A stretch of DNA of 64,000 bases from a virus (lineage: Duplodnaviria > Heunggongvirae > Uroviricota > Caudoviricetes), in the IMG/VR virus record IMGVR_UViG_2721755756_000002; one strand, written 5' to 3'. A program made the position numbers and the translations under genes. The notes under the pieces were generated by a model that worked only from the letters and a program-made list of their open reading frames with translations, did not search any database and was not told the origin of the DNA. Within the stretch, counting starts at the first letter, position 1; each line of letters starts with the position of its first letter. Shown here piece by piece: positions 21,794 through 64,000 of this stretch.

Positions 21794-22270
21794 ATGACAC
21801 TGAATAAGAAACGAACAATCATACTTATCATAACTCTTCTAGCTTTATTCTTTGTAACCAGACTTTGTGATTTTGAGGACAAAACATTCAGTTATGGACA
21901 TGCAGTATCAAATATAAAAGAACAAGCGAAGAGAGTTAAATTACCAAAAATAAAGGCATACAAAAAAAAGTCAAAAAAAGAAGTAAACTGGGTCAATATA
22001 GGAAGCTTTCGTATAACACATTACGGTATGGATATCACCACAGCTACAGCAACTGGTGCAACACCTACTATTGGTAGAACGATTGGAGTAGACCCAAATG
22101 TTATCCCTTATGGAACACAGGTAATGATTAACGGGCATGTATATATTGCCGAAGATACAGGTGCTTACACAGGTAACCATATCGACGTATTATGTGAGAG
22201 TGAAGCATATTCAGCTGAACTCGGTACTTACACCACAGACGTTTATATAAAAAATGAAAGGTCAGAGTAG
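21794..22270 (+). CDS. membrane-anchored 3D-domain protein (MltA/YuiC-like cell-wall binding/hydrolase domain)
   Basis: N-terminal TM helix; RITHYGMD...IGVDPNVIPYGTQVMINGHVYIAEDTGAYTGNHIDV is a 3D-domain signature. Confidence 0.7.
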   Translation: MTLNKKRTIILIITLLALFFVTRLCDFEDKTFSYGHAVSNIKEQAKRVKLPKIKAYKKKSKKEVNWVNIGSFRITHYGMDITTATATGATPTIGRTIGVDPNVIPYGTQVMINGHVYIAEDTGAYTGNHIDVLCESEAYSAELGTYTTDVYIKNERSE

Positions 22271-29162: not shown

Positions 29163-29206
29163 AGTTGAATAAAGGGTTAAAAAAATAAGGAAAGGAAATA
29201 GAAAAA

Positions 29207-44230: not shown

Positions 44231-44333
44231 AAAACAAGGGGGTATGTAGTGACACGTAGCATCACGAAAAGCCTTATTTTATCGTGTTTTGACACATTGA
44301 GAGTTTTTGCCGTATTACTCTCAAGGCTGTATC

Positions 44334-44361
44334 ACGGGTTCGAATCCCGTACGCGATACCA
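44334..44361 (+). tRNA. tRNA/tmRNA-like 3' terminal fragment (T-arm + acceptor 3' strand + discriminator + CCA); probable att core
   Basis: acggg-TTCGAAT-cccgt T-arm, then ACGCGAT-A-CCA; a complementary heptamer atcgtgt lies at 44281-44287 but the intervening sequence does not fold into canonical D/anticodon arms. Confidence 0.5.
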
Positions 44362-44374
44362 TATAGCGTTTAAC

Positions 44375-44397
44375 CCTTTAAATAAAAGGGTTTTTTT
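44375..44397 (+). terminator. rho-independent terminator (cccttt-aaata-aaaggg + T7)
   Basis: follows the tRNA-like fragment as in genuine tRNA gene ends or attP. Confidence 0.55.
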
Positions 44398-44435
44398 ATT
44401 ACTTCTCTTAATTTGGTGTAAATTTGGTGTAAAAT

Positions 44436-45623
44436 TCATATGGAATTAAGCTTATCCACCATTTTTATTTGAGCGTCATTGAACCAATGACCATAAATAT
44501 TGTTCACCATATCCACGGTATGCCCAAGTCTTTTTGCTATATCAAATGAATCAAAGCCTAAGTTGATTAATAATGAAACATGAGAATGACGGAAATCATG
44601 AATTCTGATTATCGGAACATCAGCTTTTTCAGCACATCTATCTTTGATGTTTTTGATATTATTATTGTCTAATGGCTTATCCATGAAGAAAACAAAACTA
44701 TCTTCACTAAAACCGATTATGTCTTTTTCATACTGATAAAGAATTAACATGGCTTTATAACACGTATCAGGCATAAGGATTGTCCTATATGAATTTCTTG
44801 TTTTAGGTGTAGTTATTAACTTTGTTTGCTTACTGTATGTTTTAGAAATATGAATGCTTTTTTCTTGCATATTAACATCAGACCATTTTAGTGCAAGTGT
44901 TTCACCAAGTCTGGTGCCACACCAATAAAGAACACTATAGAAGGCTACATATATAACACTTTTTTCTTCAAGCTGAACTTGTTTGATGAAGCTATTATAT
45001 TCGTCAGGATGCCAGAAATGCATCTCTTTCTTGATTTCATTTTTCCTTTGAGCAATTTTGAAATTGGTAATTCTATAATCTTTAATGTATCCCATGTCAA
45101 AACCGTATTTGAGAATTCCTTTAAATTTTGTTTGGATCGCTTCTATTGTCCTGTTTGCTAATAAGCCGCCATGTTTAGACTTTTGAGTTAATAAACTTTT
45201 TTGGTATAACTCGATTGTTTTTTTTGAAATCTTATCAAGGTGAATATCCTTCCAATAAGGAAGAATATGTAACTCAGAGACTTTTGTATAATCATAAATT
45301 GATCTTTCTTTTAATATGCCTTGCTTTGATGAAATAAATATACTGTATAGTTCACCAAAAGTTATATTACTACTAACTTCATTTTTTGCTGCTAAAAGGA
45401 ATGAACGTTCCCAATCTTTTGCTTCTTCCTTTCCTGCAAAACCTCTTTTATGATATCTATGAAGTTCGCCATTACAGTCAACGTAGCTTCCTTCACATTT
45501 ATAGGTTATTTTTTTTACCATTTTACTTTTGTCTTTTTTGCTTTTGACAAAGCGTTCATCTTTTTTAACTGCCATTGAATTTACCTCCATTTTTTTAGTA
45601 TAATGAAGGTACAATAAAAGCAA
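44436..45623 (-). CDS. int: tyrosine integrase
   Basis: CGTRLGETLALKW (Arg); HDFRHSHVSLL (H-x-x-R); LGHTVDMVNNIYGHW (His, Tyr); convergent with the other integrase across the att remnant. Confidence 0.8.
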   Translation of the reverse strand: MLLLYLHYTKKMEVNSMAVKKDERFVKSKKDKSKMVKKITYKCEGSYVDCNGELHRYHKRGFAGKEEAKDWERSFLLAAKNEVSSNITFGELYSIFISSKQGILKERSIYDYTKVSELHILPYWKDIHLDKISKKTIELYQKSLLTQKSKHGGLLANRTIEAIQTKFKGILKYGFDMGYIKDYRITNFKIAQRKNEIKKEMHFWHPDEYNSFIKQVQLEEKSVIYVAFYSVLYWCGTRLGETLALKWSDVNMQEKSIHISKTYSKQTKLITTPKTRNSYRTILMPDTCYKAMLILYQYEKDIIGFSEDSFVFFMDKPLDNNNIKNIKDRCAEKADVPIIRIHDFRHSHVSLLINLGFDSFDIAKRLGHTVDMVNNIYGHWFNDAQIKMVDKLNSI

Positions 45624-45719
45624 TGATTCGTGGTCATTCGTTTATTGTACCGATAGTGGTACGCCAATACCTACTATCACCCTCGTTCCTACGCCAATAG
45701 GAGCGGGGGATTTTTTTGT

Positions 45720-46514
45720 TTAATCATATTTATTTGTATAAACTGTCCCATCCAAAGATAAATAAGTACATGATGCTATATCATCTTGTATTTCCATTTT
45801 AATTACAAAATCACCACGTACTTCAGTACCAAAACTATTTTGTGAATCAACATAAGACTTAACAGTGATTATTTCATCTTTTTCATCATACTGCCAGTCT
45901 TTATCTGGATTTAAAAAAGAACCGGGGTATTTAGCTGTTGATGGTGATTTTAGTATCTTACTAATCCACTGTTTACAATTTTCTTGAATAGCACTTCTAC
46001 CATATGTATCTAATAATGACGATGAATTAGTAGATTTACCTAAACTTGCAGGTATACTTTTTTTTGCTAATTCTTTATAATTTTTGTTAATAGAGGACAT
46101 TTGGTTAATAAAGTCATCAAATTGAATATTTATAACTTTTAGATATTTTTCAAAATCATCACGAGCTTCTTTATTTGTATTTTGTTTGTCATTACTGTAG
46201 ACTATTTCAGTGATGTATTTACCATCTGAATACTTATCAAATCTCGAATAGTCAATCATAACTAACTTAGTATAGTCATGCATTATGCTAATCATCAAAT
46301 AATCATCTTCAACATAACCTTTTATATCCAAATAAATATATCCGTCAGTTCCATCTTTTTTATTGCCTTCACTGTATTCAAATTCAAAACCATCTTCTTT
46401 CATTGTTTCTAAAGGATCATCAGAATAGTTTTTTTCTTTTTCATCATCGGATCCTCCGCATCCACTTATTCCAAAACATAAGATTAGGCACAATACTAAG
46501 AAAAACTTTTTCAT
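45720..46514 (-). CDS. lipoprotein (moron / possible superinfection exclusion candidate)
   Basis: signal peptide plus lipobox ISGCGG; located between int and the CI-like repressor. Confidence 0.6.
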   Translation of the reverse strand: MKKFFLVLCLILCFGISGCGGSDDEKEKNYSDDPLETMKEDGFEFEYSEGNKKDGTDGYIYLDIKGYVEDDYLMISIMHDYTKLVMIDYSRFDKYSDGKYITEIVYSNDKQNTNKEARDDFEKYLKVINIQFDDFINQMSSINKNYKELAKKSIPASLGKSTNSSSLLDTYGRSAIQENCKQWISKILKSPSTAKYPGSFLNPDKDWQYDEKDEIITVKSYVDSQNSFGTEVRGDFVIKMEIQDDIASCTYLSLDGTVYTNKYD

Positions 46515-46577
46515 TTTACTTTTTCTTCCTTATTATTCAAGTATGCTTTCATCATAAAGATATATCAATTATAAGAC

Positions 46578-47444
46578 CTAATACTTTTGTCGACACTCAA
46601 CAACTTTGCCAATTATTTTAACCGGGAGTTGTTCAATATCATCTGCTGTATATATCCATGGATCATATTTTGTGTTAAAAGGTATCAGCATGATACCGTT
46701 ATCCATGATTCTGATCTTTTTAACTGTTGCTTCATCGCCATTTACGAGTACGATTGCCACATCACCTGTCTGAGCGGTTTCTTGCTTCCGGACAATAACG
46801 ACATCCCCTTCGCTCATTTTTGGCTCCATGCTGTCTCCTTTGACCTGTAATGCGAAAAAATCACCAGTACGTGCCATTGATTCAGATATTTCTTCATAAT
46901 CTAATATTTCTTCGATCGCTTCGATTGGAATTCCTGCAACAACACGTCCAAGAACAGGTACTTTGATACCGCCGGTTGATAAAGAACTTCTTCCGACTAA
47001 TTCTGTAAGATCAGATTTATAACATTTAAAATAGCTTGTTAACTTTTGTAATATTGTTATATTAGGTATTTTTATACCATTTAACCATTTATTGACTTCA
47101 TCAATTTTCACATCACATACTTGGGCGATGATTTCTTTTGAACTAGCTGACATATTTAAATAATGTTTTAATTTATATGCGAAAATTTCTTCTTTAGATT
47201 TAAAGGTTTTCGGATTACCATTAAAGTCAGTTAAATCATTATTTACACCCATTAACCATGCTGGTGATACATTTAATGCTTCGGCTAGTAAATAGATTTT
47301 ATCTTGCTTAGGTATTACTTTGCCCTTTAAATATTGACTTATTGCAGGACGACCTAAATTAGTGTCTCTTGCTAGATCAGCTTGTGTTTTATTGGATTTT
47401 GAAAAAGCTAGATTAAGCCGTTCTGTAGTTTTAGATGTTTCCAT
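46578..47444 (-). CDS. CI/LexA-like repressor (HTH_XRE x2 + S24 peptidase)
   Basis: N-terminal HTH QADLARDTNL...ISQYLKG; S24 core GDSMEP...GDVAIVLVNGDEATVKK with a Ser/Lys dyad. Confidence 0.75.
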   Translation of the reverse strand: METSKTTERLNLAFSKSNKTQADLARDTNLGRPAISQYLKGKVIPKQDKIYLLAEALNVSPAWLMGVNNDLTDFNGNPKTFKSKEEIFAYKLKHYLNMSASSKEIIAQVCDVKIDEVNKWLNGIKIPNITILQKLTSYFKCYKSDLTELVGRSSLSTGGIKVPVLGRVVAGIPIEAIEEILDYEEISESMARTGDFFALQVKGDSMEPKMSEGDVVIVRKQETAQTGDVAIVLVNGDEATVKKIRIMDNGIMLIPFNTKYDPWIYTADDIEQLPVKIIGKVVECRQKY

Positions 47445-47606
47445 AATTTCCTCCTTGTTAAATAGATTATAACACTTTGAACAAACTATTCAAGATGTTT
47501 AACTGCTAATGTTAAATAAATTGAATAAACATATTGCTTTTTTTGAAAATAGGTGCTATTCTTTAATCGTGTTCAAAAAGTTTAACACAAGAGAGGAGGT
47601 GATATC

Positions 47607-47846
47607 ATGTGCACAAGTCAGGTTACGTTTGATTATTGCAAACTGAGAGGAAGGATAGTTGAGAAGTTTGGGTCTCAACGTGCTTTTGCTGATGCGTTAA
47701 AGACCTCTGAGAATCAAGTTTCTTATAAATTAAACAACAAAAAGAAATTTGAAGACAGAGAAATTTTACATTGGTGTGAGTTGCTTGGTATACCAGATAG
47801 GGATATAAACCTATATTTTTTTACAAAGAGTGTTCAAAATGTTTAA
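47607..47846 (+). CDS. Cro-like HTH protein
   Basis: 79 aa; divergent from the repressor; RAFADALKTSENQVSYKLNN HTH-like. Confidence 0.5.
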   Translation: MCTSQVTFDYCKLRGRIVEKFGSQRAFADALKTSENQVSYKLNNKKKFEDREILHWCELLGIPDRDINLYFFTKSVQNV

Positions 47847-47868
47847 CAGATAGGAGGGCAGCCTTATT

Positions 47869-48633
47869 ATGAAGGTATTAAATGAAATTGAGTATTCAAA
47901 TAAGAAAGTCTTAATAACTCAGCAATTAGCAGAAGTTTACGAAACTGATATTAAGAATATTCAAATGAATTTTGCTAGAAATAAGACACGATTTGTTGAG
48001 GGAGTACATTTCTTTCTTCTTAAAGGAGATGCTTTAAGAGCGTTTAAGAACTTACCAACTTTGAGTGGGTTAGTTGACAAACATGCAAATCAACTAATTC
48101 TCTGGACAGAAAAAGGCGCTGACCGTCACTGCAAGATTCTTGATACAGATAAAGCATGGGAGCAATTTGATAATCTGGAAGAAACTTATTTCAGAGTTAA
48201 AGATAATGCAGCAATTCCAAAAACACTTCCAGAAGCTTTAAGGGCATATGCTGATCAGGTGGAAGCAAATGAAAAATTACAAATAGAAAACAACAACATG
48301 AGGCCTAAAGCATTATTTGCTGATGCTGTAGCAACGAGTAATGATTCAATCTTAGTCGGACAACTCGCCAAGCTTATTAAACAGAACGGATGCAATATCG
48401 GGCAAAATAGATTGTTTGCATGGATGCGAGAGAATGAGTTTCTTTGTATCAAAGGTGATAACTATAATATGCCCACGCAGAAAGCAATGGAACGTGGTTT
48501 GTTTGAAATTAAAGAACGAACTGTTAATAATCCAGACGGTAGTGTTAGGACTACACGGACACCAAAGGTTACAGGCAAAGGTCAGATATTTTTTGTTAAT
48601 AAGTTTTGTAAAGGAAATGGATGTTTAAAGTGA
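47869..48633 (+). CDS. phage antirepressor (ORF6N + KilA-C-like)
   Basis: KVLITQQLAEVYETDIKNIQMNF...HFFLLKGDAL...ILDTDKAWEQFDNLEETYF parallels the 7926-8648 protein. Confidence 0.65.
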   Translation: MKVLNEIEYSNKKVLITQQLAEVYETDIKNIQMNFARNKTRFVEGVHFFLLKGDALRAFKNLPTLSGLVDKHANQLILWTEKGADRHCKILDTDKAWEQFDNLEETYFRVKDNAAIPKTLPEALRAYADQVEANEKLQIENNNMRPKALFADAVATSNDSILVGQLAKLIKQNGCNIGQNRLFAWMRENEFLCIKGDNYNMPTQKAMERGLFEIKERTVNNPDGSVRTTRTPKVTGKGQIFFVNKFCKGNGCLK

Positions 48634-48935
48634 AAGGAAAGTATGATGATTCGCTAAATATTGAGCGTGAACGTATCATTATGAAAATTTACCTTACTTT
48701 AACGGATGTGAGAAATTTTCTTAGATGTAGTTGGCCAAAAGCCAAGATAAGATTTAATGAGGCAGCTGATCTATGCATAAAAGATGGAAAGAAAAATCTT
48801 GAAGGAAGGGTTTATTACAAATATTTTCTTCAAGTAATTGCTATAAGCGAGAGTGAAATTCATAAAATGGCTAAATATGAAAGGCAAATAAAAATGTCGC
48901 ACCCCACGACCAATGACGATGCGACAAAACTATAA
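48621..48935 (+). CDS. hypothetical protein (possible small DNA-binding regulator; start likely internal Met)
   Basis: 104-aa ORF. Confidence 0.35.
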   Translation: MFKVKGKYDDSLNIERERIIMKIYLTLTDVRNFLRCSWPKAKIRFNEAADLCIKDGKKNLEGRVYYKYFLQVIAISESEIHKMAKYERQIKMSHPTTNDDATKL

Positions 48936-48988
48936 GCGACTCGAATAACAAGTCAATCTTATTATAGAGCGGGGAAAGGAGAAAAACA

Positions 48989-49213
48989 ATGGTTTATTTG
49001 GTGATTTCCATCATTGCTTTAATGATATCCGTGATTTGTTATATAAGGGTGCGTGCTTTAGATAACGAGTTTGAAAGTTTGGAGCGAAGAACCTATGGGA
49101 ACATTAAATTCAATAGTTTCTATTTACAGCCAACAAGAGAACAATTAGAAAAAGCTGAAAGATATGAAAAAATCCTCAAAGAATATAAAACTACTTTTGA
49201 GGATAAGGAATAG
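48989..49213 (+). CDS. small membrane protein
   Basis: N-terminal TM helix VYLVISIIALMISVICYI. Confidence 0.4.
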   Translation: MVYLVISIIALMISVICYIRVRALDNEFESLERRTYGNIKFNSFYLQPTREQLEKAERYEKILKEYKTTFEDKE

Positions 49214-49757
49214 TAACAGAGTATTGTTTGAAATTCTTACGCTTCCTGTTACGGTCTATTGAATTTGGAATTAGAGTTTCTTTGGTTATTTTAAACCTAA
49301 TTGTTATAGAAGATGTATGAAGATTCGTTACATTGACAGGTATTTCAAAACGTGTGAAATGATTGCTCTTGAATATACCGAAATTACTGTCCAGTGGATA
49401 TAATCTGCATCTGTAATTATTTATATATGAATAAACTAGTCCACTATCTTGTGGTGTTAGACCTACATTAAATTTTGTTAGATAGTCTATAGGGTTATTC
49501 TTATCATCAAGAACCATTAAATCAAAAAAGCCAATGTCAGTCGGACTTGGATTTACTAATAAAAAAGAGAAAGATGCCAATGTATATTCAGTTATTGGTT
49601 CGGCTTGTGGGTCAGTAAATATTTCATTCAATATGAAATATTCTTCTGGCAGATGCACACTTAGACGTTTCCTTGATTTATATAGTGTATATAGAGAAAT
49701 CAAAATCGCAATGAAAGAAAAAATGAACGAATAAAAATTTAAGTCAAGCTCATGCAT
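49191..49757 (-). CDS. membrane protein encoded antisense to the early operon (moron; exclusion/abortive-infection candidate)
   Basis: 188 aa; N-terminal TM helix FYSFIFSFIAILISLYTLY; only sizeable minus-strand ORF in this block. Confidence 0.45.
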   Translation of the reverse strand: MHELDLNFYSFIFSFIAILISLYTLYKSRKRLSVHLPEEYFILNEIFTDPQAEPITEYTLASFSFLLVNPSPTDIGFFDLMVLDDKNNPIDYLTKFNVGLTPQDSGLVYSYINNYRCRLYPLDSNFGIFKSNHFTRFEIPVNVTNLHTSSITIRFKITKETLIPNSIDRNRKRKNFKQYSVTIPYPQK

Positions 49758-50277
49758 ACTACCACCTCTTTACAAGGTTAATTATAGTATGCCAAGAAGA
49801 TAAAAACAATATGAAAGGAGGAGAACAAAGCATATGGAATCTTCAATTAATGATAAAGCTTCAATAACGTATGATTTGCAAGGATTGATGATTGAAAAAA
49901 TCGTGTTTACAAGTTGTCCAAAAGAGGTAGAAGATTTAAAAAAATCTGAATTCAGCGTGATACTAAATCCAGATAGTAAAGATGGAGTATTGCTTCATGC
50001 GAATTTCTTTATCCTTTGTAAAGAGACGAATCAGGAATAGGCAGTTTATCATCACCTTCACAAATGAATGATAAGAATGAATGTGGAAAATCGGTATCAA
50101 CTGACTCACCTTGAAAGTACCAACCGAGTTTAACATATTCAGCAATTATCCATTCTTTATAATTTTCACTTAATTCCTCGCTCCTTAGGCGTTGAATAAA
50201 AGTCATAAATGGCAGCCCCCTTTCTTAGCTATATTTTAACGCTAATCGGGGGAATTATAAGAAGAAAGGAGAAGTCA

Positions 50278-50550
50278 ATGGAAGAACATGTTAACGCAGA
50301 AGTGAAACAGAAAGAACGAATGTTATGGACAATGCTTGTGTTGGCGCTCAGCATTACTCTTAACATCGTATTTACATACTCAATACACATGAATTTAGAA
50401 AGTATTGATATATACCGGAAGAAAGTCACTACAACAGAAACCCGAGCGGTGGAGTTAGAGGATGACTTAGAAAGAATGACCACGAAAAATAAAGAACTAG
50501 ATGCGAAGGTTGAAAAGTTAGAAAGGAAACTGGCTGAGCAACCAAAATGA
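50278..50550 (+). CDS. TM + coiled-coil protein ending at an in-frame TGA that precedes a 3D domain
   Basis: RBS AGGAGAAG before ATG 50278; TM helix LWTMLVLALSITLNIVFTY then a heptad-rich segment; TGA at 50548-50550. Confidence 0.5.
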   Translation: MEEHVNAEVKQKERMLWTMLVLALSITLNIVFTYSIHMNLESIDIYRKKVTTTETRAVELEDDLERMTTKNKELDAKVEKLERKLAEQPK

Positions 50551-50838
50551 AGATCATTAGGAGTTTTTAAGCTTACAGCCTATTATGCAGGCGAAGATGA
50601 ATGGGGTAATACAATCGCAAAACCCTGTGATGGTGAGCATAAAGCACGGCTAAACCACACAATAGCTGTTGACCCAAACGTTATACCTCCAGGAAGTAAA
50701 GTCCTCATTGATGGCATCGTCTACACGGCTGAGGATGTAGGCGGCTCAATCAAAGGAAATATCATAGATATCTGGGTAGGCACTGAGCAAAACAGCTTTG
50801 GTGTGAAATACAAAGAAGTTCGCATAATGGAAAAATAG
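50551..50838 (+). CDS. 3D-domain coding segment, in frame with and immediately after the TGA of 50278-50550; no start codon of its own
   Basis: translates to ...FKLTAYYAGEDEWGNTIAKPCDGEHKARLNHTIAVDPNVIPPGSKVLIDGIVYTAEDVGGSIKGNIIDIWVG, clearly homologous to the 3D domain of 21794-22270. Confidence 0.5.
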   Translation, partial: RSLGVFKLTAYYAGEDEWGNTIAKPCDGEHKARLNHTIAVDPNVIPPGSKVLIDGIVYTAEDVGGSIKGNIIDIWVGTEQNSFGVKYKEVRIMEK

Positions 50839-50848
50839 GAGAAAAAAT

Positions 50849-51313
50849 ATGACAAAAGAAGAATTCTGGAAGAAGTTTAAATCTGGTGTGCTTTGCATTC
50901 ACACACCTACGGAAGAACAGTGCATGGCAGTTGTAAAGATGAGTAAAAAAAATGGCATATATTTTGGTTTAGATAGGGCAGAGTATTTTGAATATGGCGA
51001 AAATACATACTTAGGAGTCGTGAAAAAAGATGATTTAGATTTTTTCTCAAGAGTCATGGCTGAATCGCATTTCGGAAAAAGTATTGATTGTTGGCTTGCT
51101 TATGGAACAAAAGAACACGTTGGTCACACTCAGATTGTTGAGTTTTCAGAGGTGTTTGGCGAGGAAGGAGAAGAAAATGAATCAGAGTTGAACATCGATG
51201 CAATTCTTTTAACAGGTTTATCCACTGCTATCGCGGTACTCATTGAGTCAGGGATTCCAGAGTTTTTAATTAATAAGGCAGTTAAAGAAGGTATTGAACA
51301 TGCAAAAAACTGA
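50849..51313 (+). CDS. hypothetical protein
   Basis: 154-aa ORF with RBS. Confidence 0.5.
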   Translation: MTKEEFWKKFKSGVLCIHTPTEEQCMAVVKMSKKNGIYFGLDRAEYFEYGENTYLGVVKKDDLDFFSRVMAESHFGKSIDCWLAYGTKEHVGHTQIVEFSEVFGEEGEENESELNIDAILLTGLSTAIAVLIESGIPEFLINKAVKEGIEHAKN

Positions 51314-51427
51314 GACCAACGAAGTTCTGGATAACATCGACTTCCAGCTGGAGAAAGATGCTGAAGCAGAAGAAGAATTTATGGCACACGAGGAAAGGGA
51401 CAGGAAAAGTACGGAGGAGATTTTCTA

Positions 51428-53485
51428 ATGAAAATATTAAAGGTTATAATTGATAACTTCCGCAATATCGCTCATGCGGACTACGACTTAGGGGATAGGA
51501 ATATCTTCATCGGGCCGAATTATAAAGGCAAGACCAATACAATTCTTGCTATCTATTGGGCGCTAACAGGTTATATGCTTGATGGCAGCAATGATGATAT
51601 GTCACTGAAACCACTAGATGATACCAAGAAGGAAGTATCTGTTGAGCTTGTGTTTGAAGATGGTTGGACATATAAAAAAGCCTATAGTGAAAAATGGACT
51701 ACGAAGCGTGGTACTAAGGAAACAGTAATGGAAGGCCATGTCACTCAATATTACGTTAAGGGTGATAAGAGTAGTGCTAAAGATGCACTGTCAGAGTTGT
51801 TCCAGCATATGGGATTATCAAATATAAAGTTGGAAACGAGTAAATTCGGTTTAGTTAGAGCCATAATTGATCCGTATTATATGGCAGAAACATGTGATTG
51901 GGCAATACTTCGCAGTTTTGTGATTGAGTTAGTTGGCGATGTCAGTAATGACGATGTATATGCTGCCGAAGAGCTGTTAAATAATATTCGTCCTTTATTA
52001 ACTGGATACGGTCATGATACAGCAAAAGCTACTAAGCACCTGAAAAGCAGAATCAAAGGTGCAAAAGATGAAACGAATGAAAAGAAAGCTATGCTGAAAG
52101 GCTTTTCTGATATTGCAGATGTCGATGCTAGTGTATTGGCTACGGCAAAAAAAATATTGGCCGATACCGACAAGACGATTGCACAATACGCTGCACAGAA
52201 AGCCGGATCAGTAAATCAGAAGCTTATTGATTTGCGAAACAATCTTGCACAGGTGAATTTGGAACTGGCAGAATCTATTGAATATGACCGCCACCATCTG
52301 GATGAAGTAAATGCAGATACCAAAGCAAAAATTAGAGGGTATGAAGAAGAAGTGTCTTCCGTGAGGAAAACACTTGCTGAGAAGCGCAATGTATTTACAA
52401 ATATGCAAAACGAGAATGTAAAACTTGATGCTGACATTGAGCGGGTAAAAAATGAAATAGATATCAAGAAAAAAGCAAAGGGAAATAAGCGGGATGAATA
52501 CTTAGTGGCTAAAAAAAGCCAGTTTGATGGTGGTATGGTTCTTCCTGATGAGAATACATGCCCTCGTTGCGGAGAAGTTCTGAATGCTGAATACATTGAT
52601 ACTGTAAAGGCACAGAACGAAAAACTTAAATCAGAGTTTGAGAAAAAAAAGAAAGTCACTCTGGATAGTATTGCATCAGAAGGTAAAAAATTAGAACTTG
52701 AGATCCAGAATCTTGAGTTTGAATTAGACAACTTACAGAAAAAAGAACGTCAAAACCCTGATTTTATCCTTGCAGAAATCAAAAGCATAGAAGCTGATAT
52801 GGCACAGAAGAAAGTAACCATTGAATCTCTGGAAAAGGCCATGGTAAACGAATATACATCGGAGAAGACATATGGTCTTCGCATGAAACAGAACGATATA
52901 CAGTGTGCTATTCGCAAAGAGGAGACTGTAAACACTACAGAAGAACTTGATGCTAAAATTGCAGAATTAAAGGTATCAAAGGTGCCTTATGAAGAAACAA
53001 TCAATAAACATAACCTGTATTTGCAGGCTCATGAACGAGTTAATTTGCTGAATAAAGAACTGGATGATATTGCAACAAAACAGTGCGAATATGAAAGCAA
53101 ACTGATGCTTGTTGAGAAATTCACTCAGACAAAGCTTTCTATGCTTCAGAGCAACGTTGAGAAGGTGTTCGGCAAAGCTGTTAAATTTACTCTTGTTAAA
53201 AGCAATATCAAAGAGGGTTCGTGGGATGAGGTATGTTATCCGTCAGTATTTGGTAAAGATACACCATTTAAAAAGGGTTCTGAATCAGAAAAGATCATTA
53301 CTGGCATTTATCTGATTGAGTGCGTGAAGAAAAAGATGGGTATACCGGATTTACCAATTATCTTTGATGCAGGCAGTGAATTGGACACACAGTCTTTAAA
53401 TACAAGATTAAACACTAATTCACAGCTCATCATGACAAAAGTTGACGATATCAATTATACGGATGTAACGCTGCTTAAAGCGTAG
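51428..53485 (+). CDS. SbcC/Rad50-like SMC ATPase with CxxC zinc hook
   Basis: AAA_23-like N-terminus FRNI...IFIGPNYKGKTNTILAIYWALTG; long coiled coil; CPRCGEVL hook; C-terminal Walker B/D-loop LPIIFDAGSELD. Confidence 0.65.
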   Translation: MKILKVIIDNFRNIAHADYDLGDRNIFIGPNYKGKTNTILAIYWALTGYMLDGSNDDMSLKPLDDTKKEVSVELVFEDGWTYKKAYSEKWTTKRGTKETVMEGHVTQYYVKGDKSSAKDALSELFQHMGLSNIKLETSKFGLVRAIIDPYYMAETCDWAILRSFVIELVGDVSNDDVYAAEELLNNIRPLLTGYGHDTAKATKHLKSRIKGAKDETNEKKAMLKGFSDIADVDASVLATAKKILADTDKTIAQYAAQKAGSVNQKLIDLRNNLAQVNLELAESIEYDRHHLDEVNADTKAKIRGYEEEVSSVRKTLAEKRNVFTNMQNENVKLDADIERVKNEIDIKKKAKGNKRDEYLVAKKSQFDGGMVLPDENTCPRCGEVLNAEYIDTVKAQNEKLKSEFEKKKKVTLDSIASEGKKLELEIQNLEFELDNLQKKERQNPDFILAEIKSIEADMAQKKVTIESLEKAMVNEYTSEKTYGLRMKQNDIQCAIRKEETVNTTEELDAKIAELKVSKVPYEETINKHNLYLQAHERVNLLNKELDDIATKQCEYESKLMLVEKFTQTKLSMLQSNVEKVFGKAVKFTLVKSNIKEGSWDEVCYPSVFGKDTPFKKGSESEKIITGIYLIECVKKKMGIPDLPIIFDAGSELDTQSLNTRLNTNSQLIMTKVDDINYTDVTLLKA

Positions 53486-53499
53486 AAGGAGAAATTATC

Positions 53500-54528
53500 A
53501 TGGGAAATGAAGTAGCAAAGAAACAGCCATTTACTACGGCATTAGCACAAATTCAGGACAAGTTTACAAACGCTGTCGTTAATGCAGGGAAGGCCATGAA
53601 TATTCAGTACAATGAATATCAATCAGCCTGCATGATGAATATGCTTGGAAAAATGCAAGCACTTGCTGTAGAAAATCAATTAGATATTCTGAAAATGGAT
53701 TATAGCCAGATTACGAATATCCTACAGACAGTAGCAATGCTGAATTTGAATATTTCAGCAATACCTAGAGAATGTTATATCATCATCCGAAGCAAAAAGG
53801 TAGGTAATAACTGGAAAAAGGAATTTGAATTTAATATCGAAGGTGATGGTAATGACAAGTTGTTACGGAAATTCGGTGTTGGTGTAAAGGAAGTCCGCAC
53901 ACCTTGGTTAGTGAGAGAGAACGATGAGTTTACATATCCGTCATTTAATGGTTTAGAGGTCACCCCTCCTACATGGACACCAAAGGATTATACCTCAAAG
54001 GTTGTAAGAATCGTGTATCCAATCATTAAGGATAATGACATGGTGGAATTTCATATCGCAGAAAGAGAGGGCGTTGTTCATAATCTGCAAGCGCATATCG
54101 CAAACAATCTAATGAAAAACCGAGAAGTAAAAAATGCGGCAGAATTAAATCAGATGGCAGCAACAAAAACACTGGATGAGATTCTCTCATGCCCTGAATT
54201 GCTTCCTCATATTTCTCCGGCGTGGAAAAATGCCGGAAGTAGTGAAGCTATGATTATCAGGAAAATGAAGAACAATGCCACAAAGAAATTCCCTAAGGAC
54301 TTCCAGAACGCATTCACTGCTGCAGCTTATGAATCAGCATATGAAGATTATGAACAGTACAAAGAGGATGAAAGAATAAATAAAGAAGAAGCTGTAGATG
54401 CAGAAATCATTGAACAATCCGGTACTGAACATATCGAAACACCAAAAGAAGTTATTAAGGAAAAAGCTGCAACACAGCCTGATTCTTCTGATTCTAGGCC
54501 TAAAGATGATGAGGAATGTCCGTTCTGA
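53500..54528 (+). CDS. RecT-family ssDNA-annealing protein
   Basis: N-terminal pattern NEVAKKQPFTTALAQIQDKF...CMMNMLGKMQALAVENQLDI...IIIRSKK typical of RecT/Red-beta-like proteins. Confidence 0.5.
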   Translation: MGNEVAKKQPFTTALAQIQDKFTNAVVNAGKAMNIQYNEYQSACMMNMLGKMQALAVENQLDILKMDYSQITNILQTVAMLNLNISAIPRECYIIIRSKKVGNNWKKEFEFNIEGDGNDKLLRKFGVGVKEVRTPWLVRENDEFTYPSFNGLEVTPPTWTPKDYTSKVVRIVYPIIKDNDMVEFHIAEREGVVHNLQAHIANNLMKNREVKNAAELNQMAATKTLDEILSCPELLPHISPAWKNAGSSEAMIIRKMKNNATKKFPKDFQNAFTAAAYESAYEDYEQYKEDERINKEEAVDAEIIEQSGTEHIETPKEVIKEKAATQPDSSDSRPKDDEECPF

Positions 54529-55286
54529 TGAAATTTATTTGTTTAGCAAGTAGTAGCGCTGGAAACTGCTACTACGTTGAAATAGAAAGAGTAAACCTAC
54601 CTCCAGTGAAATTGATGCTGGAAGTAGGTATCCCTTTTAAAGAAATCATGTATAAGGGACTTAATCAAGGAATCAAAATGTCTGAGATTGATGCAGCAGT
54701 CGTAACACATGGACACGGTGATCATTGTTGTGCTGCAAAGGATTTTGTAAGCCACAGAATACCATTTTATGCAAATGAAGATGTGCTTAGTAAATGTGGT
54801 GGAAACCCAAAGAATAGGCTCATTCACAATGAAATGCGTTATCTAGCAAAGGATACGCTAATCATACCGTTCAACGTAGAACATGATGCGCCCAATAGTC
54901 TTGGTTTCGTGATTTGTACAGACAAGGAAACATTGCTATTCGTTAATGATTGCAAATTCTTCAAAGCTGATTTGTCTGATTATAAATTTGATTATGTTTG
55001 CATCGAAGCGAATTATGATGGCCAGCAAATGCATTTTGCATATGAAGATGCGAAACAGAAAAATGATTATCAGAATATAGCCAGATATGAACGCTTGTTC
55101 GATAGCCATATGTCATTAGCACATTGTCGTGACCATCTAAAAAAGCTGAATTTATCTCAATGTAAGGCAATCTTCCTGATGCACTTGTCGGATAGACATG
55201 CCAATGAAAATAAATTCAAGGAGACTATTTTTGAAGCAACTGGAATCAACACTTATGTGTGTAAAAAGAATGGAGGTATTGTATGA
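54516..55286 (+). CDS. metallo-beta-lactamase-fold nuclease
   Basis: VVTHGHGDHC (HxHxDH) motif. Confidence 0.65.
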   Translation: MSVLMKFICLASSSAGNCYYVEIERVNLPPVKLMLEVGIPFKEIMYKGLNQGIKMSEIDAAVVTHGHGDHCCAAKDFVSHRIPFYANEDVLSKCGGNPKNRLIHNEMRYLAKDTLIIPFNVEHDAPNSLGFVICTDKETLLFVNDCKFFKADLSDYKFDYVCIEANYDGQQMHFAYEDAKQKNDYQNIARYERLFDSHMSLAHCRDHLKKLNLSQCKAIFLMHLSDRHANENKFKETIFEATGINTYVCKKNGGIV

Positions 55287-55534
55287 ACTTGTGGATAGAA
55301 TCTCAGGATAAAGAATTTTTAGGAATATTCAAAAAAATCCAGCAGCATGATGAAGAAATACTTGGATATGATGAAACATGGGAGGATGATGCCAAAGTAG
55401 TTCTTGGAGAATACGCATCAACTGAGCGGGCTAAAGAAGTTATGGCTGAAATTAAAAAAGAGATTATGTTTCTGGCTATGGAAGATGGAACATATTTATG
55501 TCCAAATAATGTATTTGAAATGCCGCAGGAGTAA
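55283..55534 (+). CDS. hypothetical protein
   Basis: 83-aa ORF; ATGA-coupled. Confidence 0.4.
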   Translation: MNLWIESQDKEFLGIFKKIQQHDEEILGYDETWEDDAKVVLGEYASTERAKEVMAEIKKEIMFLAMEDGTYLCPNNVFEMPQE

Positions 55535-55552
55535 GGAAAGAGAGGGAACAAA

Positions 55553-55984
55553 ATGAAACAGACAAAGAAATCAATTATCGAAGCATGTCATGGAAAAATC
55601 ATGGAGAAGGCTGATTATGCATTAGAACAGGTGTTGGCAAATATCAATGATATGAATACTGACGAAAGAAAAAAAAGAGCTATCACGATAAAGTTGGAAT
55701 TCGCTCCGCAGAATGAGCGAAAGGAAATCAAAATGGCGGTTCAGGCATCGGTAAAACTTGTGCCGGCAAACCCAATCGAAACAACGTTATTCAATGTCAT
55801 GGAGCAGAATAAAGAAACTGGTGAAGTGGTTAATGTTTTAAAGGAAATGACAGGGCAGGCACCAGGGCAGATCAATTTTGAAGGTGACATCATCGAACCG
55901 GAAGTATTTGTAATCGGCATGGAAGCAGAAAAAATCATCACAAAGGAAGAAGCCAATAGGGCAGGAGGAGAAGCATTATGTTAA
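55553..55984 (+). CDS. hypothetical protein
   Basis: 143-aa ORF. Confidence 0.45.
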   Translation: MKQTKKSIIEACHGKIMEKADYALEQVLANINDMNTDERKKRAITIKLEFAPQNERKEIKMAVQASVKLVPANPIETTLFNVMEQNKETGEVVNVLKEMTGQAPGQINFEGDIIEPEVFVIGMEAEKIITKEEANRAGGEALC

Positions 55985-56709
55985 AAGAAGCATTGCAGTA
56001 TGTAGCTAGATTAGCTACCGATTCACAGGAAATCATCGTAAAAGATATTAATGGTGAAACTTATGTAAAAGGAGATGCACACCGCATACCTACAGACATG
56101 GCATCTAAAATGAGACTCAATAGTTTGGATTCCACAGTAGACTATATTAAAGATTGTATCAGTGGTTGTAAGTTTGTGCTTCCGTATGTTGTCAATGTTG
56201 GATATAAAGAAATTGATGTATATAGCGGACTCAATGAACGTCTGGAACGTAATGTTTTGATCGAAACAACACCTTTATTGCCTCGTATATCATTTGATCA
56301 TTGGATGGACATGGAATCATTTGTAATCCAGTTGAAAACTTGCTTTGTTGAAACTGACAATTTGAATAAGTTGGTCGCTATTGTATCATCCATTACCGAT
56401 GAATCGAAGGTTTCAATGGAGGATGATGGATTTGGACTGAAAGTATCTCAGGTGAGCGGCACCACCATCAAAAAACCGGAAGAATTCCAGATTAACCCAA
56501 TTGTGAGACTTGCTCCATACCGTACTTTTACCGAATTAACTCAGCCAGAAAGTAGATTCCTGTTACGTGTTCGAGACGGCGGTAAAATGGCACTTTATGA
56601 AGCTGATGGAGGAATGTGGAAATTAGAAGCGCAGCGAAACACATCGGATTATCTGCGTGAAGCACTGGCAGAAGAGATTGCAAATGGCACAGTGGTGGTA
56701 GTCGGATAA
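55978..56709 (+). CDS. hypothetical protein
   Basis: 243-aa ORF. Confidence 0.5.
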   Translation: MLKEALQYVARLATDSQEIIVKDINGETYVKGDAHRIPTDMASKMRLNSLDSTVDYIKDCISGCKFVLPYVVNVGYKEIDVYSGLNERLERNVLIETTPLLPRISFDHWMDMESFVIQLKTCFVETDNLNKLVAIVSSITDESKVSMEDDGFGLKVSQVSGTTIKKPEEFQINPIVRLAPYRTFTELTQPESRFLLRVRDGGKMALYEADGGMWKLEAQRNTSDYLREALAEEIANGTVVVVG

Positions 56710-57131
56710 TGCAATTTACCGTCTATGGTGAACCAGTAGCAAAAGGAAGACCTAAGTTCAGCAGACAGGGAAATTTTGTAAGATCATATACTTCGACCAA
56801 GACAACGAATTATGAGAATTTAGTGAAGCTCTCATATGCTGAAGCGTGCCGTGGATTGAATAATCCTTTAGAGGGGGAAGTGTCAATGAGAATTGATGCT
56901 TTCTTCTCTATCCCAAAATCAACAAGTAAAAAGAAAAGAGAGTTGATGAACACTGGATTGATAAATCACACAAAGCGCCCTGATGCAGATAATCTTGCTA
57001 AAGCCATATGTGATGCACTGAACAAGGTTGCCTATGCCGATGATAGCCAGATCGTGCATCTTGAAGTAAATAAGTATTATAGTGATGTCCCAAGGGTAGA
57101 AATCACGATTGAGGAGGTACTACATGAATGA
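56709..57131 (+). CDS. rusA: RusA-family Holliday junction resolvase
   Basis: MQFTVYGEPVAKGRPKF N-terminus and ...RPDADNLAKAICDAL Asp motif. Confidence 0.7.
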   Translation: MQFTVYGEPVAKGRPKFSRQGNFVRSYTSTKTTNYENLVKLSYAEACRGLNNPLEGEVSMRIDAFFSIPKSTSKKKRELMNTGLINHTKRPDADNLAKAICDALNKVAYADDSQIVHLEVNKYYSDVPRVEITIEEVLHE

Positions 57132-57432
57132 AGAAAGCAATGAAGTTATCACCTTACAAATTAATGACAAACTACGCATTTTGAATGGTGATAACGACAG
57201 CTTTATTTTACAGGAAGCTTATATATCAGAAAAAACGAACACTTTACAGTGGCGTAATAAGAGCTATTACAGCGACATTTTGACTTGCCTATACGCAATC
57301 CTCCGGAGAATGCCAATCGAGCAGGGAGATACCATTGCAACGTACACAGAGCGTTTTGAGAAGTTATATCAGTTTCTATACATTGATTTTCTTGGAAAAG
57401 TAAGTTTGAAAGCAAAAAAAACATGGGGGTAA
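57109..57432 (+). CDS. hypothetical protein
   Basis: 107-aa ORF. Confidence 0.4.
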   Translation: MRRYYMNEESNEVITLQINDKLRILNGDNDSFILQEAYISEKTNTLQWRNKSYYSDILTCLYAILRRMPIEQGDTIATYTERFEKLYQFLYIDFLGKVSLKAKKTWG

Positions 57433-57451
57433 GGGGGCAGTGAAAGAAGGG

Positions 57452-58004
57452 GATGAAGAAAATGAAACTGAGTGATTTGAAAACGGGTATGTGGGCTAAG
57501 TCAAGGAATGGTGACATGTCTCTTGTTATGAGAGACCACGTATCTATAAGTTCAAGTGATGGCATATTTATTGACAAATGTGGATATTTTGAATTCAAAG
57601 AATACAATGATGATATGACAGATTGTGAGTTCACAGAACGCGACATAATCGAAGTGTTTATACCAGATTTGGAAAAGTGCACATTAAATGGAGATGGTCT
57701 AATCTCTATCTGGAAAAGAAAAGAATTGCCGAAATTAGCTCCATTTGAAAAAGAATTTCTAAAAGCTTTAAAGCCTGCATATAGAAATGGTTGGATTGCT
57801 AGAGATAAAGGTGGAGACTTGTATGCACATGATAGAGAGCCAATAAAGAACGGACTAGGTTGGGTAAGTAGATACTGTTATGAAATTAGTGATTTTGCCA
57901 ATTTCCCGCTCTTTTCCAGAGAATCCTTTACATGGTGTCAATGGGAAGACGAAGAACCGTGGTATATTCCGGATTTGTTAAAAGAGGCATAAGGTATGGC
58001 TTCA
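57452..58004 (+). repeat. ~550-bp direct repeat, copy 2
   Basis: see copy 1. Confidence 0.8.
57453..57992 (+). CDS. hypothetical protein; copy 2 of the duplicated gene (copy 1 at 38059-38589)
   Basis: near-identical protein with 3 extra N-terminal residues. Confidence 0.6.
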   Translation: MKKMKLSDLKTGMWAKSRNGDMSLVMRDHVSISSSDGIFIDKCGYFEFKEYNDDMTDCEFTERDIIEVFIPDLEKCTLNGDGLISIWKRKELPKLAPFEKEFLKALKPAYRNGWIARDKGGDLYAHDREPIKNGLGWVSRYCYEISDFANFPLFSRESFTWCQWEDEEPWYIPDLLKEA

Positions 58005-58820
58005 TATAAAAGGCATCTGAATAAAGACTATACTGTCATGCCTAACCATCATCTACGAAATAAGGATTTATCGTTAAAAGCAAAAGGATTGCTTAGCATG
58101 ATGTTAGGGTTACCTGATGATTGGGATTATTCAATCAACGGTCTGGTGGCAATATCCAGAGAAGGCAGAACAGCTGTTGAAAATGCTTTGAAAGAATTAA
58201 GAGAAGCGGGCTATGTTGTCATACGTAAGTTATATCCTAATCAAACAGATAGTAGAATCATTGAATATGAGTACAATATCTACGAATTTCCACAAGGCGA
58301 AAATGTAGCGAGTCAAGACATCATATATCAAGAAGCACATAAACAAGGAACAGGTTTTCAGCCCCTTGAAAACCACCAACAATTAAATACTTATAAATCA
58401 AATACTTATAATAAAAGAAATATAAAAGAAATTCAATTTGATTTGACAGGAAAAGAAGAAACGGACAAATCTACACCAGAGATAGAGTTAGAGATAGATA
58501 TATATAAATATAATGTGCAAATTCATGATGAATTTGAAGAATTATGGAAGCTTTATCCTAACAAAAAAGGTAAGACTAATGCATTTAAGTCTTATGAAAG
58601 AGAATGCAAGAAAAAGAAGAATCCTGCTAAGTTTGAGGAAGTGAAGAAAGGCCTTATTGCATATTGTGAATATATCAAAGCAACGAATATAGAAATGCGC
58701 TTCATAAAGAATGGTTCTACCTGGTTTAATCAAAGATGCTGGGAGGATGATTATACTATCCAAAATGGAAAGAATAGTCAGACAAATAAGAAGGCTCAAC
58801 CGGAATATGAATTATTGTGA
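57996..58820 (+). CDS. DnaD-like phage replisome organiser / replication initiator
   Basis: N-terminus YTVMPNHHLRNKDLSLKAKGLLSMMLGLPDDWDYSINGL...AVENALKELREAGYV resembles the phage replisome-organiser N-terminal domain. Confidence 0.5.
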   Translation: MASYKRHLNKDYTVMPNHHLRNKDLSLKAKGLLSMMLGLPDDWDYSINGLVAISREGRTAVENALKELREAGYVVIRKLYPNQTDSRIIEYEYNIYEFPQGENVASQDIIYQEAHKQGTGFQPLENHQQLNTYKSNTYNKRNIKEIQFDLTGKEETDKSTPEIELEIDIYKYNVQIHDEFEELWKLYPNKKGKTNAFKSYERECKKKKNPAKFEEVKKGLIAYCEYIKATNIEMRFIKNGSTWFNQRCWEDDYTIQNGKNSQTNKKAQPEYELL

Positions 58821-60018
58821 TTCTGACAAAAGTTATCTCCTAGAACAACAGGTACTCTCTATTCTCATGGTAAATGATGAAATGCTGAAAGAGTCTGAAC
58901 TAGATCCAGAGATATTCACGGATATTAGACATCGTAGAATTTACCAAAGTATGAAAGATATTTACAAAAGCAAAGGTATTGTTGATCTTATTGAAGTTGC
59001 AAAAAGAAATGAAGATATTTATAAGCTTCCAGATTATTTGTTTGCGCTTCAAGATCAATACTTTAGCTCAAAAAACTTTTATGCCTATGTCGATGGGTTG
59101 CAAGAAGTATACAAGAGGCGTAAAGCACATGAGATTTTGGCAAAGTGTGATAAAGAAGAAATTACATATGATGAAATGGTCAGTGAAATTTCAAAAGTTG
59201 GTGTTACCTTTGCACAGGAATCTAATGCAACTATGTTAAGCGCAGTGGATATGTATGAGTTAGTCACAACAGATAATGCAAAAATCAAGTTTGTGAGATT
59301 CGCAAGTCTACAAGAAAAAATTGGTTTCATCGAAAATACAATGAATATCATTGCTGCCAGAACATCCGTAGGTAAATCTGCTTTTGCATTGAATTTGATT
59401 GATGATCTATCACGGAATTATAAGTGTTTATACATGAACATGGAAATGACGGAAAAGGAGCTATATCAGAGATTAGTCAGCATTAACAGTGGTGTACCTA
59501 TCAATGAGTTTACGAAAACAAGACAAAACAAAACGTTGAGTAATAAAATCATTCAGGCTATAAACATTGTGCGTAGCAAAAAAATCAAGGTATACAATGG
59601 TTCTAAAAGTATTGATGGTATTAGAAAAATAATTTCAAGAGAATGTAAGGATGGACACTGCATTGTTTTTATAGATTATGTTGGTTATGTGTCAACGAGG
59701 AAACGACAAAATGATAGGGAGCGTGTAGGAGAAGTTACAAGAGAATTACAGATTATGACAAAGGATTTTAACTGCACGATATTTCTTCTCGCCCAAATTA
59801 ACAGGGAAGGAACAGAGGCACCTACTTTAACAAATCTGAAAGATAGCGGTGAGCTAGAGCAGTCTGGACATGCAATACTCTTTCTTCATAATCCTTCAAA
59901 CGACATCAACGATCAGACACCAGAGTATGATTTGATAGTTGCTAAAAACCGTAGTGGCAGGCTTGGAAAATTAAAAATCATGTTCTATAAAGCGATTCAG
60001 AGATTTGAGGTGATGTAG
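58711..60018 (+). CDS. DnaB-like replicative helicase (second copy in the window)
   Basis: DnaB N-terminal domain LSILMVNDEML...; Walker A ARTSVGKSAFAL; Walker B IVFIDYVGY; true start likely internal Met about 58850. Confidence 0.7.
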   Translation: MVLPGLIKDAGRMIILSKMERIVRQIRRLNRNMNYCDSDKSYLLEQQVLSILMVNDEMLKESELDPEIFTDIRHRRIYQSMKDIYKSKGIVDLIEVAKRNEDIYKLPDYLFALQDQYFSSKNFYAYVDGLQEVYKRRKAHEILAKCDKEEITYDEMVSEISKVGVTFAQESNATMLSAVDMYELVTTDNAKIKFVRFASLQEKIGFIENTMNIIAARTSVGKSAFALNLIDDLSRNYKCLYMNMEMTEKELYQRLVSINSGVPINEFTKTRQNKTLSNKIIQAINIVRSKKIKVYNGSKSIDGIRKIISRECKDGHCIVFIDYVGYVSTRKRQNDRERVGEVTRELQIMTKDFNCTIFLLAQINREGTEAPTLTNLKDSGELEQSGHAILFLHNPSNDINDQTPEYDLIVAKNRSGRLGKLKIMFYKAIQRFEVM

Positions 60019-60214
60019 ATGTGGAAAGTTTATGAAATGATAAAATCAGGGGATTTTGATATCGAACTAATAAAAAAGATTCCGCCACAAGAGATAAAAG
60101 AGGCATTGATTGAATTTGCATTAAGCAAAGATAAGTAATCTGTACGTGTAGCGGCGTTATAGCAAGGCGAAAGGTGTTGCCCCTTATCGGTCTCACTTCC
60201 GCCTGTTACACGCC

Positions 60215-60688: not shown

Positions 60689-60724
60689 GGAAGGAGAGAG
60701 TTAATCACGGACAATACAAAAATT

Positions 60725-61734: not shown

Positions 61735-61742
61735 ATAAAAAT

Positions 61743-61873
61743 GGTGTCCTCCATCCATATGTTGAGCAAGACAACGACCCTATTTCATGCAGTGGAAAGT
61801 TGATAAAAGGCAAACGCTCAACCAGGTGCGTGCGGGAAAGGAGGGCAGTTTGACGCATGGATGGAGGGCATCA
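61743..61873 (+). promoter_or_regulatory. GC-rich structured leader closed by a 12-nt inverted repeat (cctccatccat / atggatggagg) with nested gttgagc/gctcaac stem
   Basis: visible inverted repeats; local GC much higher than surroundings; 3' arm overlaps the annotated start of the next ORF. Confidence 0.4.
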
Positions 61874-62187: not shown

Positions 62188-62202
62188 AAAGCAGGTGAAA
62201 TT

Positions 62203-63923: not shown

Positions 63924-64000
63924 GGAGGGTGTAAGATGCAGCTATTGATAAAAGATTTAAACATCAGTGGTACTATCAACAATCAGTGGATTATGGATAA

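Follow-up and report, generated by a model that had tools for sequence, protein, structure and literature searches.

The A1 protein of Q-beta (Allolevivirus) is the capsid protein of a single-stranded RNA coliphage extended through a leaky UGA, which ordinary tRNA-Trp reads in a small fraction of ribosomes. To our knowledge, outside RNA coliphages such as this one, programmed readthrough of stop codons in the bacterial world is essentially confined to the decoding of selenocysteine and pyrrolysine, and our search of one collection of full-text papers returned no conserved readthrough site in a double-stranded DNA (dsDNA) phage or Firmicute gene. Here, we describe the locus at positions 50278-50838 of a 64,000-nucleotide stretch of Caudoviricetes DNA (IMG/VR record IMGVR_UViG_2721755756_000002; the whole stretch is called the window below), in which a single reading frame is divided by a TGA codon at 50548-50550. 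Ahead of this codon lies a 90-amino acid (aa) helical protein with a membrane anchor, and behind it the same frame encodes a 3D domain, a type of domain found in peptidoglycan-cleaving enzymes. We conclude that the TGA is most probably a conserved and selected leaky stop, that is, a case of programmed UGA readthrough in an early gene of temperate phages with Erysipelotrichaceae-type hosts.

With Q-beta A1, the locus would share a minor, C-terminally extended isoform with an extra domain, an abundant short form, a short linear context and the use of no dedicated tRNA, all of which are predicted here. It differs in that the protein is an early, non-structural and membrane-anchored one, putatively muralytic, from dsDNA temperate phages of Gram-positive gut bacteria, and in that, where two domains meet, the stop appears to stand in place of an ancestral Trp codon. 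Other phage genes yield two isoforms at a fixed ratio, as do lambda gpG/gpGT, through a -1 frameshift, and the two-component endolysins Lys170 and CTP1L, through an internal start. Here too, a short and a long product would share a module, with their ratio predicted to be set by translation. However, no frameshift is involved, nor a C-terminal module made alone as in the endolysins; instead, the leaky stop would give the N-terminal module together with the full-length protein.

Coliphage readthrough is cited in PMC5289835, as is the misreading by tRNA-Trp of UGA-A in Escherichia coli and of UGA in Bacillus subtilis. Adenines at -1 and -2 are known to promote readthrough (PMC7026636), and catA86-TGA is read through at about 6% in wild-type B. 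subtilis (PMC7918605). The codon, the presumed near-cognate tRNA and the 3' A are the same at our locus, but whereas those leaky stops are incidental or mutant, here the stop and its flanks are selectively invariant across a gene family. Gut phages with recoded stops (TAG to Gln and TGA to Trp; code 15 or 4), whose genes are fragmented by standard annotation, are described in PMC9523058. An in-frame stop at which standard annotation breaks the gene is common to both situations; unlike those phages, which have many in-frame stops across the genome together with suppressor tRNAs, ours has exactly one in-frame TGA in each homologue of this gene, TGA as its main terminator elsewhere and no phage suppressor tRNA. 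As for the 3D domain, PMC4499186 names the residues of B. subtilis YuiC, a minimal lytic transglycosylase of the MltA type whose crystals contained its 1,6-anhydro product, and an Sps protein is known from a prophage, namely YorM of SP-beta (PMC1084345). The family, the fold and three Asp residues are shared with YuiC/Sps and MltA, though the known YuiC/Sps members are single open reading frames (ORFs) with a signal peptide or anchor, and gating by an internal stop has been reported for none of them.

Conservation of the TGA and of the codons beyond it

Positions 44345-64000 of the window correspond to the initial 19.7 kb of Clostridium phage Maintenon (GenBank ON453900.1), from which they differ by two single-nucleotide polymorphisms at 53871 and 59412 (A in the window and C in the record), both distant from the gene. 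Given these differences, the window comes from an assembly independent of ON453900.1, probably that of the host chromosome. An exact copy of the 561-nt allele is present in the phage record, in two complete NCBI chromosomes, in mouse and human gut assemblies and in Logan/ENA metagenomes, and the exact 90-aa product is recorded in 27 blocks of public assemblies. Sequences fetched from ten such places showed 100% identity across the 561 nt, apart from one missense change at one of the loci.

Homologous loci were gathered from four collections (genome, viral, Logan and metagenome) with peptide seeds that do not depend on the stop, and the codon tabulated was the one preceding the [RK][SA]LG.F motif. 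TGA occupies this codon in 65 loci from the genome, viral and Logan collections and in 79 of 80 metagenome loci; once pooled, the carriers comprise 130 full-length loci, 79 unique coding sequences (CDS) and 72 unique proteins, which single-linkage clustering divides into 8 clusters at 70% identity and 14 at 90%. An A follows the TGA in all 79 unique CDS, the codon before it is AAA in 73, AAT in 4 and GAG in 2, and neither TAA nor TAG ever occurs at the site. Among the carriers are isolates, these being Merdibacter sp. Marseille-QA0792 (two copies) and C. innocuum, as well as metagenome-assembled genomes labelled Erysipelotrichaceae, and the more distant 3D proteins of Lachnospiraceae type are stop-free. 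An earlier sequence-only reading of the window had offered programmed readthrough, a recent nonsense mutation and a sequencing error as explanations of the TGA, and had looked to homologues for a decision. In their alignment the TGA is kept throughout the TGA set (79/79 unique CDS), the rare sense codons being TGG or CGA; each homologue carries either the TGA or one of these sense codons in one continuous ORF, and in none is the 3D domain an independent gene with its own start, the arrangement which that reading had set against readthrough.

Synonymous change sets this site apart from the rest of the gene. Among the 43 columns in which a residue is at least 90% conserved, 41 vary in their synonymous codons, and the only two that do not are the TGA (39/39) and the preceding Lys codon, which is always AAA (36/36). 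Because the other conserved columns drift in this manner and these two do not, the comparison indicates that AAA-TGA is held at the nucleotide level.

The 95 residues downstream of the TGA match the Pfam 3D family (PF06725; E=1e-13, and 51.8 bits against a cut-off of 23.8), and this segment also matches B. subtilis YuiC in the Protein Data Bank by sequence. An AlphaFold2 model was made on P0001, which is 93% identical to the Maintenon product, with a mean predicted local distance difference test (pLDDT) score of 88.3. Using Foldseek, the modelled domain gave 4wlk (YuiC; E=2.4e-4) as the best hit, followed by 2ae0 (MltA; E=3.9e-4), with a probability of 1.00, and it displays the double-psi beta-barrel fold of YuiC/MltA (model pLDDT 88). 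Moreover, Asp132, Asp153 and Asp164 are invariant (alignments A1 and A3) and are aligned with the YuiC motifs by HMMER. The domain, which the sequence-only reading had already recognised as 3D, is by these matches a bona fide member of the 3D/Sps family, with predicted cleavage of peptidoglycan. In the model, one continuous helix (residues 2-87) is followed by the first beta-strand of the domain, which begins at residue 91, so the TGA position would fall exactly at the junction of helix and strand. The expectation that a fused product would reproduce a membrane-anchored 3D architecture is thereby upheld, at the level of the model.

For unsaturated pairs, the ratio of nonsynonymous to synonymous change (dN/dS) is 0.07-0.32 on the 5' side of the TGA and 0.06-0.19 on the 3' side (the latter for TGA-TGA pairs), and between groups the segment after the TGA shows proportions of synonymous and nonsynonymous differences (pS and pN) of about 0.75-0.9 and 0.25, respectively. 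Directly after the stop, Leu at +3 is written with five codons from both Leu families, and Gly at +4 with all four of its codons. This pattern points to selection on the amino acids immediately following the stop, and to downstream codons that are translated in frame; since those amino acids are under selection, initiation further downstream is excluded. Along with the invariant TGA and the independent assemblies, it is this purifying selection that favours programmed readthrough among the three explanations first put forward.

What the codon was before it became a stop can be judged from the sense homologues. TGG stands at the site in L018, which is nested within the TGA clade of a neighbour-joining tree, as well as in L035 from Breznakia and in a paralogue from the neighbouring prophage Amboise. 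With BLASTP, residue 91 of the long product (the TGA position, taken as Trp) aligns with Trp66 of this paralogue at the very start of the alignment (39% identity, E=2e-14). The homology between the two proteins had been noticed from the sequence alone and stands, but the paralogue belongs to the other prophage. CGA is found in five full-length 186-aa homologues (L005, L006, L020, L101 and L188), a subgroup that lies beside the TGA-bearing L102 in the tree and is identical to it in the C-terminal half, and a single substitution separates CGA from TGA, against two from TGG. On this comparison, the site is an ancestral Trp codon, and the stop seems to have been present in the ancestor of the clade and to have reverted to sense in rare cases.

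Some homologues call for separate remarks. The W that databases give at the site in P0001, P0004 and P0013 (L004, L017 and L019) was considered as an intact TGG and rejected, the DNA reading TGA and the protein being a code 4 translation; entries translated in this way can conceal in-frame stops in protein-level comparisons. In L145 (IMGVR_UViG_3300045988_154225), from the subgroup of L143 and L144, the upstream frame is a different one, no usable start is present and a TGA-G lies 13 codons ahead of the domain; apparently, either this copy has been frameshifted and has decayed, or its assembly is at fault. Finally, the linker of the Breznakia pachnodae DSM 16784 homologue (L035) contains an in-frame GAT-AAA-TGA-ACT, 18 codons upstream of its TGG and about 75 nt before the 3D match, and the presence of AAA-TGA-A at this other linker position suggests that the arrangement may have arisen more than once.

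Proposed decoding of the TGA and competing explanations

The context of the site, with UGA followed by A in 79/79 and preceded by AAA in 73/79, agrees with the published leaky contexts. No conserved RNA structure was detected (RNAalifold gave 0 pairs over 12 diverse sequences, and the window fold had z=-0.37), and Rfam at E<=10 returned no match and no selenocysteine insertion sequence (SECIS). As there is no downstream stimulatory structure, the site is of the short-linear-context type. A suppressor tRNA, which the sequence-only reading had thought worth seeking, did not turn up, as none with anticodon UCA is present in Maintenon or in the window, and the tRNAs of Maintenon are canonical (Trp-CCA, Gln-UUG and Met-CAU); ARAGORN found no complete tRNA in the window. 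The Maintenon tRNA-Trp(CCA), at 29137-29210 of its record, has a normal 5-bp anticodon stem and a U11:A24 pair, the same pair that E. coli tRNA-Trp acquires through the Hirsh G24A UGA-suppressor mutation (PMC13092985). An identical tRNA-Trp is found only in the two closest TGA-bearing IMG/VR contigs, L099 and L100, and since these phages are near-identical overall, its co-occurrence with the TGA is uninformative.

It is rather unlikely that the leaky UGA serves as a regulated switch, a translational timer or sensor as opposed to a fixed-ratio device, with readthrough, and through it the dose of the anchored lytic transglycosylase, being tuned in the course of infection by the phage tRNA-Trp(CCA) with its U11:A24 pair, by release factor 2 (RF2) of the host or by the status of Trp-tRNA. 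Were this the case, the gene would be a living example of selectable ambiguity between UGA as stop and UGA as Trp in the bacterial lineage most closely related to the Mollicutes, the group in which UGA turned into a Trp codon.

Efficient reassignment, by which UGA would be read fully as Trp in a code-4-like manner (with a tRNA-Trp of anticodon UCA or an altered tRNA-Trp) and only the long protein would be made, seems to us very unlikely. The relatedness of the hosts to the Mollicutes, the Hirsh-type pair in the phage tRNA-Trp, and the gene callers that used code 4 on several contigs and so produced a W all speak for it. However, TGA is the commonest true stop in Maintenon, where it ends 27 of the 59 plus-strand ORFs with 90 aa or more, and it also terminates 12 of 44 of the homologous genes themselves. 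Throughout these 44 genes all other Trp codons are TGG (101, against 44 TGA, exactly one per gene), and neither the phage nor the window has a tRNA with the UCA anticodon. Nor would an invariant TGA make sense if it were synonymous with TGG, as other conserved columns drift. The remark that no other gene of the window has an in-frame TGA is borne out as well, there being no other long TGA-interrupted frame in it.

That the domain is made without decoding of the stop, either by an in-frame hop of tRNA-Lys from AAA to AAR or by termination and re-initiation at a non-canonical codon close by to give a separate cytoplasmic 3D protein, carries a similarly small probability. Hopping is a recognised theoretical alternative to readthrough (PMC5009743), and the stop is preceded by AAA and, in 35 of the 79 unique CDS, followed by AAA or AAG; yet in 43 of the 79 the codon at +1 is AGA, on which tRNA-Lys would land poorly, and a hop would delete the Trp that is kept in the sense homologues. 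In favour of re-initiation, an ATG or TTG always overlaps the stop (mostly as A-TGA, and as T-TGA where AAT precedes), and a Shine-Dalgarno-like GGAG lies 9 nt downstream in the window. The overlapping ATG (50547), however, is out of frame and closes after 7 codons (ATG AAG ATC ATT AGG AGT TTT TAA), and the overlap of a start codon with the stop is probably a by-product of the AAA/AAT context. The GGAG, for its part, belongs to Leu-Gly codons whose nucleotides are unconserved (GGC, GGT and GGG also occur). While the sequence-only reading was right that the frame stays open after the TGA (95 sense codons to the TAG), it was not right that start codons are missing from it, since GTG at 50803 (codon 85) and ATG at 50827 (codon 93) are in frame. 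As the only canonical in-frame starts, both are at the extreme C-terminus and unable to yield the 3D domain, which therefore has no start of its own. Moreover, residues +1 to +4 are conserved through synonymous change and so are translated. The ATC at 50614, from which PGAP begins an ORF, was considered as a start and rejected, as it has no Shine-Dalgarno sequence and conservation at the protein level extends to the residues ahead of it. Re-initiation would also leave a 3D domain with neither anchor nor export signal; as the segment carries no signal peptide, it could, judging from its sequence, reach peptidoglycan only as a fusion to the anchor.

A recent nonsense mutation, which would make the gene a decaying prophage pseudogene with an unexpressed 3D segment, is highly improbable. 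Decay is common among prophage genes, it is in the mobilome that genes with in-frame stops are most frequent (PMC7918605), and the relative L145 looks frameshifted. Against this, the same codon is TGA in 79 unique CDS from 8 clusters at 70% identity, between which synonymous sites are saturated, and the ORF downstream is always intact, free of scattered stops and frameshifts and with a dN/dS (0.06-0.19) that does not suit a gene in decay after so conserved a TGA; Maintenon is, besides, inducible and active (PMC10197239). Selenocysteine insertion, to which an in-frame UGA in a Firmicute-type host might point, can be given almost no credence, as there is neither a conserved hairpin nor a SECIS, the sense homologues have Trp or Arg and never Cys, and the site is, by the model, the structural start of a strand and not a redox site. 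A sequencing or assembly error with a true TGG codon would need one G>A difference, but it is next to impossible given that the same sequence was obtained across laboratories and technologies (two complete NCBI chromosomes, the phage record and at least 24 Logan/ENA contigs) and that diverged homologues carry the same TGA.

Several considerations nevertheless weigh against programmed readthrough as we propose it. Both the long isoform and the amino acid inserted are predictions from sequence comparison, and several of the TGA-bearing clusters are closely related, so that the truly independent lineages number about 8-14, far below the locus count. The preference for AAA and for A at +4 is partly expected in an AT-rich genome, where Arg is AGA at every Arg column and the Lys codons are mostly AAA. 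The tRNA evidence is drawn from the phage and the window. In addition, the gene is situated in the early region, between cro/antirepressor and SbcC-like/RecT recombination genes, and outside any lysis cassette. The CGA and TGG variants, moreover, imply that a constitutive long form is viable, so that the benefit of the stop is a presumed one.

Gene anatomy and genomic setting

The features of the locus are collected in Table 1. For the upstream ORF, the ATG, the ribosome-binding sequence and the hydropathy of the membrane segment all agree with what had been read from the sequence alone, and a single start (MEEHVN) is shared by all Maintenon-like homologues. The membrane segment is contained within the single modelled helix. 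This helix also fits the coiled coil that had been proposed for the remainder of the short product, for which matches to coiled-coil-type Pfam and PHROG entries are weak only. A scan for promoters and terminators gave nothing informative inside the gene.

Table 1. Coordinates of the features in the window
Feature	Position	Strand	Description
Shine-Dalgarno sequence AAAGGAG	50265..50271	+	6 nt 5' of ATG 50278; sequence reading
Short product, 90-aa membrane-anchored helical protein	50278..50550	+	90 codons, terminated by TGA 50548-50550
Predicted transmembrane helix, residues 15-33 (MLWTMLVLALSITLNIVFT)	50320..50376	+	Mean Kyte-Doolittle 1.97 over 19-mer
Long charged helix, coiled-coil-like stalk, residues ~36-88	50383..50541	+	AlphaFold helix 2-87 (predicted), pLDDT ~90
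Putative recoding site AAA-TGA-A	50545..50551	+	TGA 50548-50550, next base A 50551
Putative readthrough extension, 95 codons and TAG 50836-50838	50551..50838	+	3D / YuiC-MltA-type lytic transglycosylase domain
Predicted long product, 186 aa	50278..50838	+	Transmembrane helix, stalk, Trp/X91 and 3D domain; requires TGA decoding
Comparator, transmembrane-anchored 3D paralogue (Amboise)	21794..22270	+	TGG (Trp) at homologous position, no internal stop

Positions 1-44344 of the window are the right part of phage Amboise (ON453899.1). Amboise and Maintenon are adjacent prophages of [Clostridium] innocuum I46, a member of the OMM12 mouse consortium, and both have been induced (PMC10197239). The possibility that the 64-kb window represents the 57-kb phage wrapped onto itself is ruled out, as its left 44 kb is the second prophage. 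At the junction of the two prophages (approximately 44318-44344), there is a sequence resembling the 3' half of a tRNA, GGGTTCGAATCCCGTACGCGATACCA, which is probably a shared attachment (att) core. Elsewhere in the Maintenon record, at 16390-17390 and 34120-35551, the PAPS reductase and the major head protein are each annotated as two adjacent CDS. These were considered as further cases of TGA readthrough and ruled out, the halves being in different frames, and they may be frameshifts or real two-gene arrangements.

The annotation of the gene itself varies between records. GenBank ON453900.1 (PHANOTATE) places two antisense hypothetical proteins over the 3D segment, at 50583-50717 (-) and 50721-50825 (-), and PGAP (CP022722.1 and CP015404.2) calls a 74-aa ORF at 50614-50838 (+) from the in-frame ATC.

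Predicted roles of the two products

As we picture programmed readthrough at this gene, the majority of ribosomes would terminate at the TGA and release the 90-aa membrane helix and stalk, and a minority would decode the UGA in frame, most likely by means of ordinary tRNA-Trp(CCA) aided by the AAA-UGA-A context, and add the further 95 codons. By analogy with B. subtilis, we infer an efficiency of a few per cent. The resulting 186-aa form would have its YuiC/MltA-type 3D domain held outside the membrane by the common anchor, in a putative N-in/C-out topology. As the stop sits on an ancestral Trp codon, the first beta-strand of the domain in this long form would begin with the ancestral residue. 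Peptides named for proteomic detection of the product are LTAYYAGEDEWGNTIAK, VLIDGIVYTAEDVGGSIK and GNIIDIWVGTEQNSFGVK.

The stop would then set a low ratio of long to short product. A potentially hazardous enzyme that cuts the cell wall would thus be metered, and the stalk-only form, with which the long form could possibly hetero-oligomerise through the helical stalk, would be supplied in excess. With regard to what the two isoforms may do, the candidate purposes are the metering of a muralytic enzyme early in infection, or an Sps/Rpf-like stimulation of the host wall.

As a whole, the gene family offers clean comparative evidence for such a site, along with a minimal signal of 7 nt, AAA-UGA-A. 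It is misannotated alike by PHANOTATE, by PGAP and by the metagenome callers that use code 4 and write W, and similar sites have probably been missed elsewhere. For the phages, our findings suggest that a wall-cutting enzyme may be metered against a surplus of its own membrane stalk; for their hosts, as relatives of the Mollicutes, the gene would provide a natural handle on the ambiguity of UGA between stop and Trp.

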